Positions 6,254-13,202 of a DNA stretch of 13,202 nt are shown here, one piece after another (positions within the stretch are counted from its first letter, which is position 1; every line of letters starts with the position of its first letter). Below the pieces are notes generated by a model. It saw only the letters and a program-made list of their open reading frames with translations, ran no database searches and was not told where the DNA came from. Source of the stretch: an archaeon (GTDB lineage Archaea; Asgardarchaeota; Thorarchaeia; Thorarchaeales; Thorarchaeaceae); NCBI GenBank assembly GCA_024275415.1, contig JAJRZD010000115.1, positions 1-13,202 on the forward strand, given 5' to 3'. Position numbers and translations under genes: made by a program.

Positions 6254-9200
6254 TTGAGTGCCACGGAAACCGTTACAAAACGCAAAGTTGGAGCATCCAC
6301 AATCCTTAGTGCAATTTTCATCGTTGCTATGGTTGTCTGGGGAACCTATTCACTGGTTATGATTTCCATGGACAAAGTTCGCTCGGAAGAACCCCATGTT
6401 CAACTGGAAGACATCGAGCCATGGAACTACAATATTGACTGGGCTGGAGGACGCTCTAACTGGTTTGACGACATCAACTACACCGACCTCCCACTCGACC
6501 AACAGCTCCCCCAGGATCTTCTGGATCAGCTCAATAATACACTTTTTTTGGTTCGTCCTGCTGATCCAGCACAATTGTGGCGTGGTACAGCTTATGACCT
6601 CTACGATGGGTCTGGATGGAGCAAGTCGTTATCCGGAGGTACTTTCTCCCTCTCCCCCATATCGCGAGCTTCAGCCGCCAATCAAATTTATACTATCAGC
6701 ATGAACGTTTCGGTAAGTGCGAACGTGGAACCGATAGAACTGCCGTCTCTCTTCCCAGAGATTCAGGTCATTGAGGACTCTTTTAGGACCATCCCCGCAG
6801 ACGCATTGATTGATTATTACCTCGAAACAGATGAATATGATACGCTATTGTTGTATCCTTTTTTGGCTGGCAATCTTGGCGACACTGTCCTATTGGAATA
6901 TGACATCAGCTATGTCGATCAGGATCTGGCCACCATTGAAGCGAACGCCCTGCATGGTTCAGCTGCTGAGGCCGGTATTGCAACAGACTATGGACGGTCT
7001 GCCACCACAGTCGAACTCTCATCGATTGTATTGGACGAGATTGCGCCTTTCAGATCTGACACAGCCACTGCCTATGAACAAGCCATGGCGGTGGACTTGT
7101 ACTTCAAGACCAACTACGAGTTGATGATGAACGAGAGCCAGATTAATGAGCGACCTGATGGTCAGGAGGTCACTGAATGGCTAATCGAGCGAGGTGGTGG
7201 TCTGCCGATGGATTTTGCCACCGCGTACAGTGTATTCATGAGGGAACTGGACATTCCCGCTAGGATGACAATTGGATATGCGATGGGCGACCCGAATCCC
7301 GATGGTAGTGATTCGCGTCTTGTCAAGGTGCTTCATATGATGTTCTGGGTTGAAGTATTCATCCCTACCAGCACTACAGATGGAGAATGGATCCAAGTTA
7401 TCCCTGTGCCGCTCCCATCGGATTTTGGAGGTGGCGATCTTCCCCAGAACACAGGTGCCAGCAACGTCACCATCCTCGTTGGCACTCCCGAGAATATTGC
7501 ATTGCAGCTGATTGACCCTACCTCACCTCTTATCCCACAATGGTCAATGATTGGTGACCCTTTCAACCTTAGTGCGATGGTTCTGGTCAATGGGCAGCCC
7601 TATGTGGGTTCGGAACCTATCCGTTTTTATGACCTGACGGATGGTGTTGAAATTGGAACGACCCCAATCCAATTCACTCCTGATGGACAGCACTTACCCC
7701 TTGCCAATATCACTTACGCATTTCCTGATGGTTCTACAGTTGGCGCTCACAATATATCCGCAATGTGGATTACCTCCACATTTCTGGCTACCGGCTACAC
7801 ATCTTGGGCGGCAGTTGGACAATCAAGCCCCTCTGTCCCTGTGCAACCTTTCACGTTCACTCCCAGCGAAACCATCCAGATGGACATCAAGCTTGGACTT
7901 AATAACTACACGGCACAGTGGGTAGACACCCTGCATGTGTTCGGGGTCATGACCATTGGTGGTTCCCCTGCTAATGGCACCCGTCTGGCTGAATTGGGGA
8001 ATGACCAGATGTGGATAATGTGGGATGGACTATGGTATGCGAATGCAACCATTGGCCCTGACGGATACTATGAATACTATATCTATCTTGATCCCACAGA
8101 CCTTGTCCGGATGACGGCTGGACAACATAACGTGTCCGCTTTTTATGCAGGCGCAACTGACCCTGAAACAGGGATTCCAGTAGTACTTGCCGGCAGTTCC
8201 GATAATTCTACAGTGACGCTTAGTGCGGTCGTGGGTTTTGATTTGACAGTGACACCAACAACCTCCTATGGTGGAGGCACTATAACCTACGACGGTAACC
8301 TCTACCTCCTGAATGGAACCCAACTCGTTGGAGAAACAGTAGGCATTCTGTTTGACGGCGCAGTGGTGGATACCACTATAACCAATGGCACTGGTGGTTT
8401 CAACTATGGCTATGTTATTCCTCTTGCACAGTCGTCAGGCGACTACCTTGCTCAAGTTAATTTCACCTCTACGATTCCATTAGTGAACGGTAACACTAGT
8501 CTGCCCGTTACAGTGACCGTAGAAAGCGGTGCTACGACTCTTACGATTGATTCGACCCCAAAGGATCCACAGGCTGTTCACACCTACGAGAATATCACGA
8601 TTTTCGGCACACTCACTGTGACCTCTGACGGGACGCCGCTTGGTGGCCGAGTTGTTGACATCTACTGGGACTGGAACAATGGGACTGTACAACTCCTCGG
8701 CTCCAATACGACGGATGCAGTCGGTTATTACACGTTCACCTACCAAATCCCTGCATATTCGGAAGGGCTAGCCACCTACTGGACTGAGTTCAGTTCATTG
8801 GAGCCAAACTATCAGTCTTCTGCCTCACCTATGATGAACATCACTGTGAAACGATATGATGTGATTGTATCCATCGAAACAATCCAGAGTTCAGTGGTCA
8901 TAGGGGAAACGTTGGATATCCAAGGAACTGTCTATCTCCCAGAAATTCCAGCTCTCCTCGGGGGTGTATCAGTGGATCTATGGTGGGATAACGGGTCGAT
9001 ATACAACATTGCCACTGTAGTTACCAATACTGGTACGGGCATCTACATTTTCAACTATACAGTTCCCATTACACACCCTCTTCAAACAGTTTCACTTTGG
9101 GCCAACTACACATCCACCTCTCCCGCACTCTACAGCAACGAGTCGGTTCATCTCCCAATAGTTGTCAGGAACTATGACTCATACATCTCGGTGAATGCGA

Positions 9201-12200
9201 ACTCATCGGTGATTCATCTAAATGAAACTGTGTACATCTACGGTTATCTTGAACATGAGAATGGGACTCCTCTTACGGGAATGCTCGTGACCATCACTTG
9301 GAACAATGGCACAGACTACAACTTCCAAGCTTATACTAATGCCACCGGCTGGTACAACTTCTACTATAATTGTTCTTTATCTCAGGATTCTGAAGGGACC
9401 GTCACAGTCACAGTCGCTCATGTTTCCGTGGACATAACTTACAGTGGCTCAACTGCCATACTGAGCCCCTCTCTTACGCTCCAGCTGTATCAGCTTACGA
9501 TTACTTCGTCCGTGAATCCCAATCCTGTTCATCTTGACGAGTCTTTCATTTTTGATGGTGTCCTTACATTTGATGTGAATGGGAAACCATTAGCAGGTGC
9601 TACTATCTTGATATTCTACCAATATGAGAATGGCACAACATACTCCTTACCAAAGGTGACGAACTCTACTGGCGGGTTCTTATTCCAGTATAACTGTTCA
9701 CTCAGTGACACAATAGGAGCGATATATGTCTGGGGTCAGTACATCAGTAGTGATCCTCTCTGGGACAATGCGACCTCGCTCACGCACACAGTCAATCTGA
9801 TATTATACTCCATGACACTTACGACGTTCACAAATAGCACATCCTATTTCATCGATGAAGCAGTATTTATCTGGGGGCGGTTGACGTATTCGCATAATGG
9901 CACCCCACTGGACAATCAACCTATCACAATCTACTGGCTGGATACAGGATTGCAGACCCTTGGCCCTGTGTATACTAACTCAACTGGCTACTTCAACTAC
10001 ACCTACCAGCTCATGCCCGGGGTAGACCCGGAGGGTTCTGTCACGGTCTGGGCAGCGTTTAACACGACTGTCCCATTATGGGATAATGCGAGTTCCACGC
10101 CTGGGGTGACCTTCTCCGTCACCAGATATGCAGTGACAATCGATATCACTGTGACTCCTAACCCTGTCTACCTCAATGAGACCCTGACTATCCAAGCACA
10201 TGCCTATTTCACTCATAACGGGTCTGACGTAGCATGGATTCTCCTTTCGTTCTATTGGAACAACGGCACAGTTCATCTGCTGGGAAGCTACACGACAGAC
10301 TTGACAGGATGGACACAATTTACGTATTCAGGGATGGACAACGATTCAGTTTGGACTTCGATTGACGTTTATGCGACATTCTCAGGCAATCTCCTCCTTT
10401 CAAGTGCAGAATCGAACCATGTGAGCCTCACACTCCAACAATGGGCCACGCTGTTCGTTAATGTGGGTACAGGAGGAATCACCAGTTACAAGCTTGGTGA
10501 AACTGTGGTGATTACTGGGCTGTTCTATTATGATGTTGTCGGCCCAGACATCCCCTATGGCAGTGCGACCATTGAGGTCCTTGTCGATGGAACACCTGTG
10601 AATACTACCATCACCATATCTGATGGCTCTTTCACTGGCTACTGGACAATTCCTATAGATACCACGACAGGCTCACACGACATAACTGTCAGGTTCACAT
10701 CACCAGTGAACTGGATTGCAGGTACGACATATTCACCTGCTATTTCTCTCACTATCGATGCGGTCAATATCATCTGGACTTTTGATGCCACGCCCGACCC
10801 TGTCTACAGGGGTGAGTGGCTCTACATATCCGGGACTCTGGATTTGGACAACGGGAGTGTGTATGCAGGTGCGACTGTCACGATTTACTGGCAAAGCCCC
10901 TCGCAATCAATACCATCTGAGATTGCAGTGCGCGTGACAGACGGAAGTGGCTTCTTCGAGCTATGGTACCAGGTCAGTGACACTGCAGAACTGGGGCTGA
11001 CGACAATACTAGTTGATTGCTCTTCTGGTACGCCAGTGATTGCCTACAGCACGGCAACCGATCTGGTCACTGTTGAATTGATTCCTGTCGTTCTTATTGG
11101 GAGTGGGAGTGTTACTGACACTATCTATCTAGGTGATACGATTGATTTCTCTGGCACGCTGACCTTTGGCAATGGAACCCCCATGGTCGGGTATGAAGTG
11201 TCGATAATATGGGACTATTCAGTACTAGCCACAATAACCATTGAGGATGCAGTTACTGGCTCCTTCTCTTACTCGTATCTTCTTCCTTGGGACGAGTCGG
11301 TTCGTAACATCACATACTTCATAGAATTCAATAGGCCTTCGGAGGCATATCAAGAATCTCAAACTAACGACACCTATCTGGAGATTCGTGATACGGTCGC
11401 CATAACCTTAGATTCTCAGACTGTAGATGTTGTATTCAGAGGCGACCTTTTGACGATTTCTGGAACTGTCACGAATGGCGGTGGTGCTGATGGAGGTGTC
11501 CCCATCGAGGTGCTGATTGACGGCGCGCCGTCTGGACAATATGATGTGACCGATTCTGAGGGCCGGTTCTCTGTAGATCTCTTGATTCGAAACAGCATCT
11601 CCCCTGACCTTCATAACTTCACTGTATCTATCAACTCCGCCTATTACGATGTAAGCAGTGCTCCTGCATATTGGGAGGTTGAAGTCCACATAACCTCGAC
11701 TATCACCATTGCATTCGATGACCTATCTGATGTAGTACCCACACAGCAGTTTACAATCAGTTTTACAGTGATTGACGAAGACGGCAACACTCCTGTAGGC
11801 GATTATGTTTCGGTATACCTCAATGATACTTACATCACCGATTTACGGATTAGTGACGGTCTTAACACGTGGTCAATCACATTGCCATCGTCTTGGTCAG
11901 GAGGTTCTGGGTACTTTATTGCAGTGGTCGAGTGGGATGGCTCCACCTATGTGGAAGGCGCCGTTGGAGAAACGGATGATTCCATTCATGTGTATGATAG
12001 TGCAGAGTTCACATCATTTGGTCCTCCCTATGCAGCAGTCAACAGCCGTGTCAGACTGACGGGGCAATTGATAGACGGTGCGGGCAACCCTATCGTCGGT
12101 GCTACAATTCGCCTTTATCTGAACCGCACTCCTTCACCTGGTGGTATCTCGGCAACCGTCACTACTGACGCGTCGGGAGTGTTCTCTTATATTCTCCCAT

Positions 12201-12478
12201 CCCAATTCACCGAAACAGGCTCCTATTTCTTCGTTGCAGAGTTTGTTATGGGTGATGGAACACTCGTCACTGGAAGACATGACTTCGAGATCACGCTTGG
12301 AGCCCCACCGGGATTCGACACAGCTTTGTTAATTACGTGGGTTGTAGCAATAGGGATTGAGTTGTTCATTGCAATGGTCATTATTGCACGATACCGATAT
12401 AACCGTGGAAGCTCTAGGTTATTTGGGTTCAGACTTCGAAGCAGGTCGTCGGACATATATGATTCATTGGTAAGGTGA
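6254..12478 (+). CDS. Giant cell-surface protein: TM anchor + TgpA-like transglutaminase-fold module (triad apparently lost) + about 15 Ig-like repeats + C-terminal TM
   Basis: TTG start 7 nt after GAGGT; N-terminal TM (ILSAIFIVAMVVWGTYSLVMI); LWRGTAYDLYDGSGWS (TgpA N-domain-like); DFATAYSVFMRELDIPARMTIGY and WVEVF (TGase core); about 105-aa beta-rich repeats; TM at 12323..12388; Arg-rich tail. Confidence 0.9.
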   Translation: MSATETVTKRKVGASTILSAIFIVAMVVWGTYSLVMISMDKVRSEEPHVQLEDIEPWNYNIDWAGGRSNWFDDINYTDLPLDQQLPQDLLDQLNNTLFLVRPADPAQLWRGTAYDLYDGSGWSKSLSGGTFSLSPISRASAANQIYTISMNVSVSANVEPIELPSLFPEIQVIEDSFRTIPADALIDYYLETDEYDTLLLYPFLAGNLGDTVLLEYDISYVDQDLATIEANALHGSAAEAGIATDYGRSATTVELSSIVLDEIAPFRSDTATAYEQAMAVDLYFKTNYELMMNESQINERPDGQEVTEWLIERGGGLPMDFATAYSVFMRELDIPARMTIGYAMGDPNPDGSDSRLVKVLHMMFWVEVFIPTSTTDGEWIQVIPVPLPSDFGGGDLPQNTGASNVTILVGTPENIALQLIDPTSPLIPQWSMIGDPFNLSAMVLVNGQPYVGSEPIRFYDLTDGVEIGTTPIQFTPDGQHLPLANITYAFPDGSTVGAHNISAMWITSTFLATGYTSWAAVGQSSPSVPVQPFTFTPSETIQMDIKLGLNNYTAQWVDTLHVFGVMTIGGSPANGTRLAELGNDQMWIMWDGLWYANATIGPDGYYEYYIYLDPTDLVRMTAGQHNVSAFYAGATDPETGIPVVLAGSSDNSTVTLSAVVGFDLTVTPTTSYGGGTITYDGNLYLLNGTQLVGETVGILFDGAVVDTTITNGTGGFNYGYVIPLAQSSGDYLAQVNFTSTIPLVNGNTSLPVTVTVESGATTLTIDSTPKDPQAVHTYENITIFGTLTVTSDGTPLGGRVVDIYWDWNNGTVQLLGSNTTDAVGYYTFTYQIPAYSEGLATYWTEFSSLEPNYQSSASPMMNITVKRYDVIVSIETIQSSVVIGETLDIQGTVYLPEIPALLGGVSVDLWWDNGSIYNIATVVTNTGTGIYIFNYTVPITHPLQTVSLWANYTSTSPALYSNESVHLPIVVRNYDSYISVNANSSVIHLNETVYIYGYLEHENGTPLTGMLVTITWNNGTDYNFQAYTNATGWYNFYYNCSLSQDSEGTVTVTVAHVSVDITYSGSTAILSPSLTLQLYQLTITSSVNPNPVHLDESFIFDGVLTFDVNGKPLAGATILIFYQYENGTTYSLPKVTNSTGGFLFQYNCSLSDTIGAIYVWGQYISSDPLWDNATSLTHTVNLILYSMTLTTFTNSTSYFIDEAVFIWGRLTYSHNGTPLDNQPITIYWLDTGLQTLGPVYTNSTGYFNYTYQLMPGVDPEGSVTVWAAFNTTVPLWDNASSTPGVTFSVTRYAVTIDITVTPNPVYLNETLTIQAHAYFTHNGSDVAWILLSFYWNNGTVHLLGSYTTDLTGWTQFTYSGMDNDSVWTSIDVYATFSGNLLLSSAESNHVSLTLQQWATLFVNVGTGGITSYKLGETVVITGLFYYDVVGPDIPYGSATIEVLVDGTPVNTTITISDGSFTGYWTIPIDTTTGSHDITVRFTSPVNWIAGTTYSPAISLTIDAVNIIWTFDATPDPVYRGEWLYISGTLDLDNGSVYAGATVTIYWQSPSQSIPSEIAVRVTDGSGFFELWYQVSDTAELGLTTILVDCSSGTPVIAYSTATDLVTVELIPVVLIGSGSVTDTIYLGDTIDFSGTLTFGNGTPMVGYEVSIIWDYSVLATITIEDAVTGSFSYSYLLPWDESVRNITYFIEFNRPSEAYQESQTNDTYLEIRDTVAITLDSQTVDVVFRGDLLTISGTVTNGGGADGGVPIEVLIDGAPSGQYDVTDSEGRFSVDLLIRNSISPDLHNFTVSINSAYYDVSSAPAYWEVEVHITSTITIAFDDLSDVVPTQQFTISFTVIDEDGNTPVGDYVSVYLNDTYITDLRISDGLNTWSITLPSSWSGGSGYFIAVVEWDGSTYVEGAVGETDDSIHVYDSAEFTSFGPPYAAVNSRVRLTGQLIDGAGNPIVGATIRLYLNRTPSPGGISATVTTDASGVFSYILPSQFTETGSYFFVAEFVMGDGTLVTGRHDFEITLGAPPGFDTALLITWVVAIGIELFIAMVIIARYRYNRGSSRLFGFRLRSRSSDIYDSLVR
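7460..12300 (+). repeat. Tandem array of about 15 diverged Ig-like (bacterial Ig/invasin-like) protein repeats
   Basis: Recurring pattern [V/Y]xxGExxxIxGxL...NGTPLxGxxVxIxWxNG...TxxxGxFxxxY...W with a period of about 100-110 aa. The repeat is visible at protein level only. Confidence 0.75.
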
Positions 12479-12479
12479 T

Positions 12480-12938
12480 ATGATGCAGTTACTCAATATA
12501 GCAATGCCAGCGATTGCGCTCACTGGAGCAGTCATTGTGGTGCTCTTGTACCTGTACTATGTTAAAGGGATGTTTCGTAGCACCCCTCGAACTGTAACAT
12601 CTGTGGACATTCCTGGCAAACTACGGAACATAAAGAAGCTGGCTGATGCTGGCAAGTACGAAGGCGCGATAACCCTTGCATATCGCACTTTTGAGCAGAT
12701 GTGTGGGATGAAGATGGGTTCGGAGCGGATGCCCTCTGAAACCGCTCGCGAGTACATTGAGCGTGTATTGAAGGCTATACCTCTTGACGCAGAATCTGTA
12801 GAGTCCTTTGTGCAAGCATATGAGGAATCCCGGTTCTCGAATCACACTGTGACCAGAGACCGTTACGAGCTTGCAATCAAGATATTCACTGACATCTACC
12901 CCCGGATTGAGGGTGCTACCATAACTAGGGCGCGATGA
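12480..12938 (+). CDS. Membrane-anchored DUF4129-domain protein
   Basis: N-terminal TM, then AGKYEGAITLAY, PSETAREY and YEESRFSNH, the DUF4129 pattern. Starts 1 nt after the upstream stop, which lies inside an AGGTGA RBS. Confidence 0.8.
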   Translation: MMQLLNIAMPAIALTGAVIVVLLYLYYVKGMFRSTPRTVTSVDIPGKLRNIKKLADAGKYEGAITLAYRTFEQMCGMKMGSERMPSETAREYIERVLKAIPLDAESVESFVQAYEESRFSNHTVTRDRYELAIKIFTDIYPRIEGATITRAR

Positions 12939-12959
12939 TATGATGATGCGATTCCAGTT

Positions 12960-12966
12960 GGAGTGA
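12960..12966 (+). promoter_or_regulatory. Shine-Dalgarno site of the DUF4350-like gene
   Basis: GGAGTGA with a 5-nt spacer to ATG 12972. Confidence 0.5.
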
Positions 12967-12971
12967 TATAG

Positions 12972-13202
12972 ATGGGTTGGAAGGAAGCTCTGCAGATTAC
13001 AGTCTTCATTCTGGCATTGATCCCGATTGGATACCTTGGCATCACTACGATGGCTAACTATAATCAGGAGTACCAATATGACTTTTCCATCTACAACACA
13101 AACTGGAATGGTTTGAGTGAGTTCAGGACAGATATCGAACAAAGTGGGTATCGTGTACAGACAATACAATCCTCTATGAGCGTTATCAGTAGGTATCGCG
13201 GG
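12972..13202 (+). CDS. DUF4350-like secreted/membrane protein, N-terminal 77 aa (runs off the right edge; absent from the ORF track)
   Basis: Manual translation: MGWKEALQITVFILALIPIGYLGITTMANYNQEYQYDFSIYNTNWNGLSEFRTDIEQSGYRVQTIQSSMSVISRYRG. TM/signal helix followed by FSIYNTNWNGLSEF, matching the archaeal DUF4350 N-terminal motif (FSxYNxxWNGxSxF); typical DUF4129 context. Confidence 0.75.
   Translation, partial: MGWKEALQITVFILALIPIGYLGITTMANYNQEYQYDFSIYNTNWNGLSEFRTDIEQSGYRVQTIQSSMSVISRYRG

Follow-up and report, generated by a model that had tools for sequence, protein, structure and literature searches.

In Pseudomonas aeruginosa, the protein TgpA (PA2873) acts as a transglutaminase in vitro, is important for the viability of the bacterium, and is predicted to have six membrane helices (PMC3507681), where the protein described here has one N-terminal helix. 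Transglutaminase-like domains can also be inactive and yet have real functions, as in band 4.2 (EPB42), Cyk3, Rad4/XPC and FBXO21 (PMC3386208, PMC10318531). In archaea, the gene neighbourhood of arCOG01314 (DUF4350), MoxR and vWA proteins has been predicted to encode a secretion or membrane-remodelling complex, and an external GldG-like domain has been predicted for arCOG01314 itself (Makarova, Galperin and Koonin 2015, PMC5898192). The present analysis concerns a gene at positions 6254..12478 (+) of a stretch of 13,202 nucleotides, referred to below as the window, which is the whole of a 13.2-kb contig (JAJRZD010000115.1, G000:C101) from an archaeon of the Thorarchaeaceae (GCA_024275415.1). 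The gene is an intact open reading frame (ORF) of 2,074 codons from a TTG start, and its product, referred to below as the giant, carries a TgpA-like external domain, the head, in whose transglutaminase core all three catalytic residues have been replaced.

Proteins of this family are named “transglutaminase-like putative cysteine protease” in the databases, which would be wrong as chemistry for the whole Thorarchaeia clade. The giant is a near-universal, single-copy and very large surface component in an Asgard class that lacks a characterised envelope, and its operon, which includes genes for MoxR, DUF58, DUF4350 and DUF4129 proteins, is widespread in archaea and bacteria and is still uncharacterised in function.

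Replacement of the catalytic triad

The translation of 6254-12478 contains the motifs GGGLPMDFATA, KVLHMMFWVEVF and GEWIQVIPVP, in which Pro318 (7205..7207, +, ccg), the first residue of the core helix, stands at the position of the catalytic Cys, Met363 (7340..7342, +, atg) at that of the catalytic His, and Ile383 (7400..7402, +, atc) at that of the catalytic Asp. When the protein was compared by phmmer with all PDB sequences, the sole match was TgpA (6g49), where the Cys of SGFCAHYA falls opposite Pro318 and the His of FDAHAWVE opposite Met363; a profile alignment that includes Asgard relatives gives the same placement of Pro318 and sets Ile383 on the Asp of W-x-Q-F-D-P. The core itself is recognised by Pfam as Transglut_core (PF01841) at residues 270-382 (7061..7399, +) with 41.9 bits against a cut-off of 23 and an E value of 1.3e-10, and the giant scores 47.8 bits with this family in a genome-wide profile search, while NCBIfam holds no family that matches it. 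The Cys-His-Asp triad of active transglutaminases and thiol peptidases is thus represented by Pro318, Met363 and Ile383, and the two other transglutaminase-core genes of the same genome keep the triad in the motifs G-D-C-D-E, H-A-W/Y and D-P.

An earlier reading of this DNA, referred to below as the original prediction, had reported the change of Cys to Pro at 7205, of His to Met at 7340 and of Asp to Ile at 7400 in an intact ORF with a conserved scaffold. Each of these statements holds, since the motifs and codon coordinates are exact, Pfam, phmmer and the profile alignment agree, the frame reads through from end to end, and the core is both significant in Pfam and close to TgpA in fold. That catalysis has been lost with the triad can be concluded, from the sequence, with high confidence.

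Conservation of the fold

A model of residues 40-480 was produced with AlphaFold2 (AF2) from an alignment of 56 orthologues, and its predicted local distance difference test (pLDDT) score has a mean of 81 and ranges from 81 to 97 across residues 88-400. Foldseek matches the model to the periplasmic domain of TgpA with an E value of 2.8e-12, and VIA-align superposes it on TgpA (6g4h and 6g49) with a Z score of 21 and a root-mean-square deviation of 3.5 Å over 254-256 of 278-288 residues, which is far above the next entries. The pLDDT, the superposition on TgpA and further matches to TG2, TG3 and factor XIII, at Z scores of 7-10, identify the papain-like transglutaminase core fold, and band 4.2 and XPC are also among the fold matches, at Z scores of 6-7.6. 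The core helix of the model starts exactly at Pro318 (model residue 279). The original prediction had held that the fold is preserved and had proposed a superposition on P. aeruginosa TgpA as a check, and the result of that superposition bears the claim out.

Orthologues, relatives and selection

The 108 orthologues that were aligned, whose heads are 43-70% identical, all have Pro at the Cys position and a hydrophobic residue at the Asp position (Ile in 83, Val in 16, Leu in 8 and Met in 1), so that the pattern of substitutions is not a feature of chance or of sequencing. Variation within the motif is greatest at the His position (Met in 38, Thr in 27, Ala in 13, Gln in 9, Leu in 8 and Ile in 6). 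Gly316, Leu317, Phe321, Thr323, Arg330, His361, Glu367, Trp379 and Gln381 are invariant across the set, position 337 is Arg in 107 of the 108 proteins, and Asp320 is nearly invariant. The original prediction had left it to such a comparison whether the orthologues share Pro, Met and Ile or keep Cys, His and Asp, and the alignment indicates that the loss of the triad is ancient and family-wide in Thorarchaeia. A six-frame search finds the giant as a single-copy gene in 73 of 87 genomes of this class, in 23 of its 24 high-quality genomes and in all 17 of its genera.

The best conserved block of 50 residues in the full-length protein is 301-350, which holds the dead nucleophile site and has 79% identity, compared to an average of 51% in the immunoglobulin-like (Ig) region that follows the head. 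Because this block heads the conservation of the whole protein despite the loss of the triad, the core is under strong purifying selection; the original prediction had argued for selection for a non-catalytic role. The nearest relative of the giant is only about 70% identical in protein, and synonymous sites would be saturated. A conserved fold, missing catalytic residues and purifying selection, the features by which a pseudoenzyme is recognised, are all found in the head.

The wider family was sampled with a profile search of 1.84 billion representatives, which gave 11,162 hits, and the best 150 of these were aligned, tabulated and arranged in a tree. Among these best 150 hits, the Thorarchaeia clade is monophyletic with a support of 100 and is uniform in having Pro at the first catalytic position, any residue at the second and a hydrophobic residue at the third, while its neighbours have D-H-E, S/A/G-H-D or the full C-H-D. 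The D-H-E form (P0116) represents a sister family in the same class (G001), the C-H-D forms include P0166 and P0125, which are both from Freyarchaeota, and in another clade the Cys is replaced by Trp, Phe or Tyr and the His by Tyr. The transglutaminase superfamily had Cys-His-Asp as its ancestral state, so the nucleophile has been lost several times in this Asgard radiation; in the Thorarchaeia clade all three members of the triad have gone.

Two further observations concern these relatives. In sister Asgard clades (P0118-P0131, P0121 and P0224), the Cys of the triad is replaced by Ser, Ala or Gly while His and Asp are kept, and the Ser-His-Asp forms may be dead or may be live enzymes of the serine type. 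Giants of 2,000-3,300 residues (P0132, P0138, P0143, P0163 and others) carry three or four transglutaminase cores each, with Cys-His and Ser-His copies mixed in one polypeptide.

Layout and topology of the giant

The TTG codon at 6254 is the likely start of the giant, because orthologues share the N-terminal pattern M-S/G-x-x-x-x-x-x-K-R-K-V-G, which is followed by a helix. The database gene call (P0002, 2,039 residues) begins at Met36, within this helix, and the N-terminal membrane helix is truncated in it (6254-6361). Hydropathy indicates two membrane helices in the whole protein, at residues 17-35 and 2026-2044. The first is the peak of a hydrophobic segment of residues 14-39 (6293..6370, +) with KRK before it, and the second (12329..12385, +) is followed by an Arg-rich tail. 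Between them lie a conserved, aromatic-rich juxtamembrane linker of 48 residues (40-87; 6371..6514, +), the head (residues 88-400; 6515..7453, +), which AF2, Foldseek and VIA-align resolve into a beta-sandwich and the transglutaminase core, and a chain of repeats of the Ig-like, CarboxypepD_reg, MG2 and DUF6795 types (7454..12283, +), assigned by Pfam and rich in N-x-S/T sequons. The repeats behind the core match the Pfam families DUF6795, CarboxypepD_reg, MG2, MG4 and Big_1 (Ig-like), and the Ig region amounts to about 1,600 residues between the head and the second helix. The giant as a whole has 53 sequons, compared to 20 expected from its composition, with the highest density in residues 400-1400.

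The protein therefore has the external beta-sandwich and transglutaminase ectodomain behind an N-terminal membrane helix that marks the TgpA-type architecture, with one such helix; the other mark of this architecture, a membrane helix followed by a cytoplasmic DUF4129 domain in the same polypeptide, is absent in the window, where DUF4129 is encoded by the next gene. On the position of the head, which the original prediction had put at the tip of a long stalk, that prediction requires revision. The head follows the N-terminal helix (14-39) after the linker alone, and the Ig chain lies between two anchors; because the head is directly behind the helix, it would be located at the membrane unless that helix is cleaved.

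The linker deserves separate mention. It is rich in Trp, Tyr, Asn and Asp (residues 40-87, 6371-6514), the block 51-100 is the second best conserved of the protein, with 69% identity over the orthologues, and the pLDDT of the segment is 31-47. Despite these low values it is highly conserved, and one possibility is that it serves as an interface and becomes ordered only on contact with a partner.

The ectodomain of the giant is also extremely depleted in lysine, with 10 Lys in about 1,986 residues (6371-12328), and the external domain of the DUF4350 protein of the same genome has 1 Lys in 288 residues (L007 1-864), while cytoplasmic proteins of this genome have 4-6.5% Lys. Relatives of the giant from outside the Thorarchaeia, whether live or dead, have 2-3% Lys. 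The depletion was considered as a correlate of triad loss, and this was rejected, because it follows the Thorarchaeia clade and the other dead clades have 2-3% Lys.

The operon

The gene downstream of the giant (12480..12938, +) begins 2 bases past its stop and encodes a DUF4129 protein of 152 residues with one membrane helix and a Lys/Arg-rich domain. It is followed by the start of a DUF4350 gene (12972..13202, +), which is cut by the end of the contig and continues on G000:C7, as a contig overlap of 141 bases indicates (window 13062-13202 is identical to the first 141 bases of G000:C7, L007 1-141). The rest of the DUF4350 gene on that contig is succeeded by genes for a MoxR ATPase (AAA_3), a DUF58/vWA protein, a membrane protein of 469 residues and a DHHA1 protein. 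Co-directional genes for DUF4350, the AAA_3 MoxR ATPase and DUF58/vWA thus stand beside an Ig-bearing membrane protein both in this genome (C101 and C7) and at orthologous loci. The same gene order is found at four other loci (L004, L008, L009 and L010), which adjoin the nearest NCBI orthologue, a live C-H-D form from Freyarchaeota, the D-H-E form and an A-H-D form, and because the order is the same with C-H-D, A-H-D, D-H-E and dead heads, the operon is retained irrespective of the catalytic state of the head.

Most orthologues have DUF4129 as a part of the giant itself, fused behind a single helix. The subclade of the window has undergone gene fission at this point (12329-12938), with the giant having its own C-terminal helix and Arg-rich tail and DUF4129 being a separate one-helix protein. 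The DUF4350 protein has a Lys/Arg-rich tail and an external part that is poor in Lys and bears sequons, so its GldG-like domain lies outside the cell, in line with the prediction of Makarova et al. for arCOG01314 (PMC5898192). A complex prediction for residues 50-405 of the giant and the external domain of the DUF4350 protein of the same genome gave a score of 0.02, which is evidence neither for nor against a contact.

Several other features of the surroundings can be recorded. An antisense ORF of 182-193 residues (12621-13202, -) overlaps with the genes for DUF4129 and DUF4350; Pfam gives no hit for it, and it is in all likelihood spurious. Within a few kilobases of the operon at related loci there are two genes for Snf7 (ESCRT-III) and one for a small GTPase of the Arf/Ras/Roc type (L009 1719-2929; L010 16306-16848); these are typical Asgard genes, and a functional link to the operon is hypothetical. 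Upstream of the giant there is a gene for an RsmB/F-type ribosomal RNA methyltransferase (1495-2478, -), and such a gene is also present at the Freyarchaeota locus (L008 3111-4412, -), a common position that hints at old synteny.

Proposed role of the head and alternative explanations

The explanation that is favoured here, and that we consider reasonably probable, is that the head contains a pseudoenzyme core in a TgpA-like ectodomain, which is kept as a non-catalytic, membrane-proximal module of a conserved membrane system. The ancestor would have been a Cys-His-Asp protein composed of a membrane helix, the TgpA-like ectodomain, Ig repeats, a second membrane helix and a cytoplasmic DUF4129 domain, a type that is still found, in the same operon, in Freyarchaeota. 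In the common ancestor of the Thorarchaeia clade, Pro would have taken the place of the nucleophile, capping the core helix, and the Asp would have given way to a hydrophobic residue of the buried type, with the His position freed from constraint and the remaining core subject to the strongest purifying selection in the protein. A domain altered in this way would no longer make or break isopeptide or peptide bonds, and would have persisted on the external side of the membrane as a module that folds but has no catalytic function, its former active-site pocket filled by Pro, Met and Ile. Together with the juxtamembrane linker, the head would most likely hold protein-protein contacts in the system made up of the giant, the DUF4129, DUF4350, MoxR and DUF58/vWA proteins and the adjoining membrane protein, while the glycosylatable Ig chain would span between the two membrane anchors. 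We infer for the head, in other words, a scaffold or contact role within the membrane system and, if the first helix is uncleaved, a position close to the membrane.

The original prediction had also argued for a non-catalytic role, and this part of it is the best reading of the sequence, given a missing triad, a fold that has been kept, an uninterrupted ORF and strong selection. Its further suggestion that the dead cleft serves as a binding site is doubtful, since the replacements (Pro at the Cys position, Met, Thr, Ala or Leu at the His position, and Ile, Val or Leu at the Asp position) and their neighbours are hydrophobic, which suggests a filled pocket rather than a preserved cleft. Some points weigh against the favoured explanation: the filling of the pocket and the orientation of His361, Asp320 and Glu367 are read from sequence and secondary structure, the membrane-proximal position depends on a putative non-cleavage of the N-terminal helix, the partner of the head is hypothetical, and the non-catalytic state of the Thorarchaeia clade is deduced from its residues.

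If the head were still an enzyme, it would have to act through a non-canonical site, for example one made up of His361, either Asp320 or Glu367, and a nucleophile supplied by Thr or water. His361 (7334..7336, +) is placed two residues ahead of the catalytic His position in the orthologue alignment, the original prediction had itself named it as a residue that could overturn the claim of inactivity, and the invariance of His361, Glu367 and Gln381 and the near-invariance of Asp320 are what such a site would lead one to expect. In the relatives, however, residue 367 is Glu in almost every row, residue 381 is mostly Gln and residue 361 is His, Asn or Gln, and this extends to proteins that keep Cys-His-Asp, so that these are scaffold positions; P0185, for instance, has C, H and D as well as His at 361, and TgpA has Asp at the equivalent position. 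Because intact-triad relatives carry His, Asn or Gln there, His361 is not compensatory, and it was rejected as a replacement base in favour of an ancestral scaffold position of the family. Position 320 is less constrained in the relatives (D/H/Q/N/V/S/Y), and the near-fixation of Asp320 may be specific to the Thorarchaeia clade. As for a nucleophile, no Ser or Cys is invariant anywhere in the head over the 108 orthologues, and invariant residues with a hydroxyl group are limited to Thr307 and Thr323, of which the latter alone was tabulated in the relatives, where its column is mostly Thr or Ser, with few exceptions, in proteins with and without the triad. Cys326 was considered as a displaced nucleophile and rejected, because, although 90 of the 108 orthologues have Cys there, the giant of the window has Ser, as do 8 further proteins, and another 9 have Ala, Thr or Gly. 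A surviving enzyme is, on these grounds, very unlikely.

A head without catalysis could also serve other ends than the one proposed. Surface adhesins are often of a long-stalk, C-terminally anchored build, and the long, sequon-rich Ig chain and the C-terminal anchor of the giant would suit a distal knob for adhesion or ligand binding, carried on a stalk of about 15 Ig domains and held by the C-terminal anchor only, if the N-terminal helix were a cleaved signal peptide; a distal head of this kind is what the original prediction had pictured. This helix is probably an uncleaved signal anchor, however, since its hydrophobic stretch covers about 26 residues and has no small residues at -3 and -1 after it, a pattern conserved in the orthologues; TgpA, a homologue, retains the membrane helices at its N-terminus (PMC3507681), the 48 residues behind the helix are as highly conserved as is expected of a retained juxtamembrane element, and the pocket residues are hydrophobic, so that we judge a distal knob to be unlikely. 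The dead head might instead be a decoy or regulator of live transglutaminase-like proteins, binding their substrates without turnover, as in the dominant-negative idea raised for Cyk3 (PMC3386208); the genome does have two small live paralogues, of which one is anchored in the membrane and has an external part rich in sequons, but these are unlinked and distantly related, a hydrophobic pocket filling speaks against the binding of a substrate Gln or Lys, and the operon partners are identical with a live or a dead head, all of which leaves this explanation highly improbable. The idea that the core is a decaying relic without any function of its own, with the Ig chain alone being important, can appeal to the free drift of the catalytic His position, yet no part of the protein is better conserved than the core, in which dozens of residues are invariant over 108 orthologues and 17 genera, and a relic is scarcely credible.

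The retention of the head as a non-catalytic module can be extended into a broader proposal, which is put forward tentatively and is itself rather doubtful. The operon of the giant, DUF4129, DUF4350, MoxR and DUF58 would build a membrane-tethered glycoprotein coat across Asgard archaea, with the head as its assembly or docking unit; catalysis, for example covalent cross-linking, would then be only ancestral, and would have become unnecessary on several independent occasions (with Pro in Thorarchaeia, Ser, Ala or Gly in other clades, and Trp, Phe or Tyr in a third). If this is true, the family provides a series of live and dead forms for working out what TgpA-type systems do, and in any case the live-head operons of Freyarchaeota and the dead-head operons of Thorarchaeia are a natural contrast by which the catalytic role of TgpA-type proteins can be separated from their structural role.

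Comparison with known systems

Literature searches returned nothing on Thorarchaeota combined with transglutaminase-like proteins, nothing relevant on Asgard surface proteins combined with transglutaminase, and no paper that ties a dead TgpA-like head to the DUF4350/MoxR/vWA neighbourhood or to Asgard archaea. The arCOG01314 neighbourhood shares with the operon a DUF4350 protein with an external GldG-like domain, a MoxR AAA+ ATPase, a DUF58/vWA protein and adjoining membrane proteins with external Ig-like domains. In the text that describes it (PMC5898192), as searched, a transglutaminase component is not mentioned; here, unlike in that description, the part of the Ig-bearing protein is taken by a TgpA-like giant whose core is dead, and DUF4129 is added. 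The PFNA cluster of Bifidobacterium (pkb2, fn3, aaa-atp/MoxR, duf58 and tgm; PMC12067865) likewise shares MoxR, DUF58, a transglutaminase-like membrane protein and a surface repeat protein, but it is bacterial, it includes a kinase gene, and its FN3 protein is separate.

The known protein closest to the head is TgpA, the only sequence match in the PDB (6g49/6g4h), which has the same two-part ectodomain fold and shares with the giant the plan of a membrane helix or helices, an external transglutaminase domain, a further membrane helix and a cytoplasmic DUF4129 domain. It differs in keeping Cys-His-Asp and in having no Ig chain, and in the window DUF4129 is a separate gene. The loss of the catalytic residues has its parallel in band 4.2 (EPB42), fungal Cyk3 and Rad4/XPC, which likewise have a transglutaminase fold without catalytic residues and a structural or binding role. 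These inactive eukaryotic forms are cytoplasmic or nuclear, however, and most of them keep part of the triad (His and Asp in Cyk3), while the giant is extracellular, archaeal and membrane-anchored and is without all three residues, and the likeness appears to be one of kind rather than of demonstrated descent. Pseudo-transglutaminases are thus already known, and a domain of this sort in an uncharacterised surface system of Asgard archaea is an addition to them.

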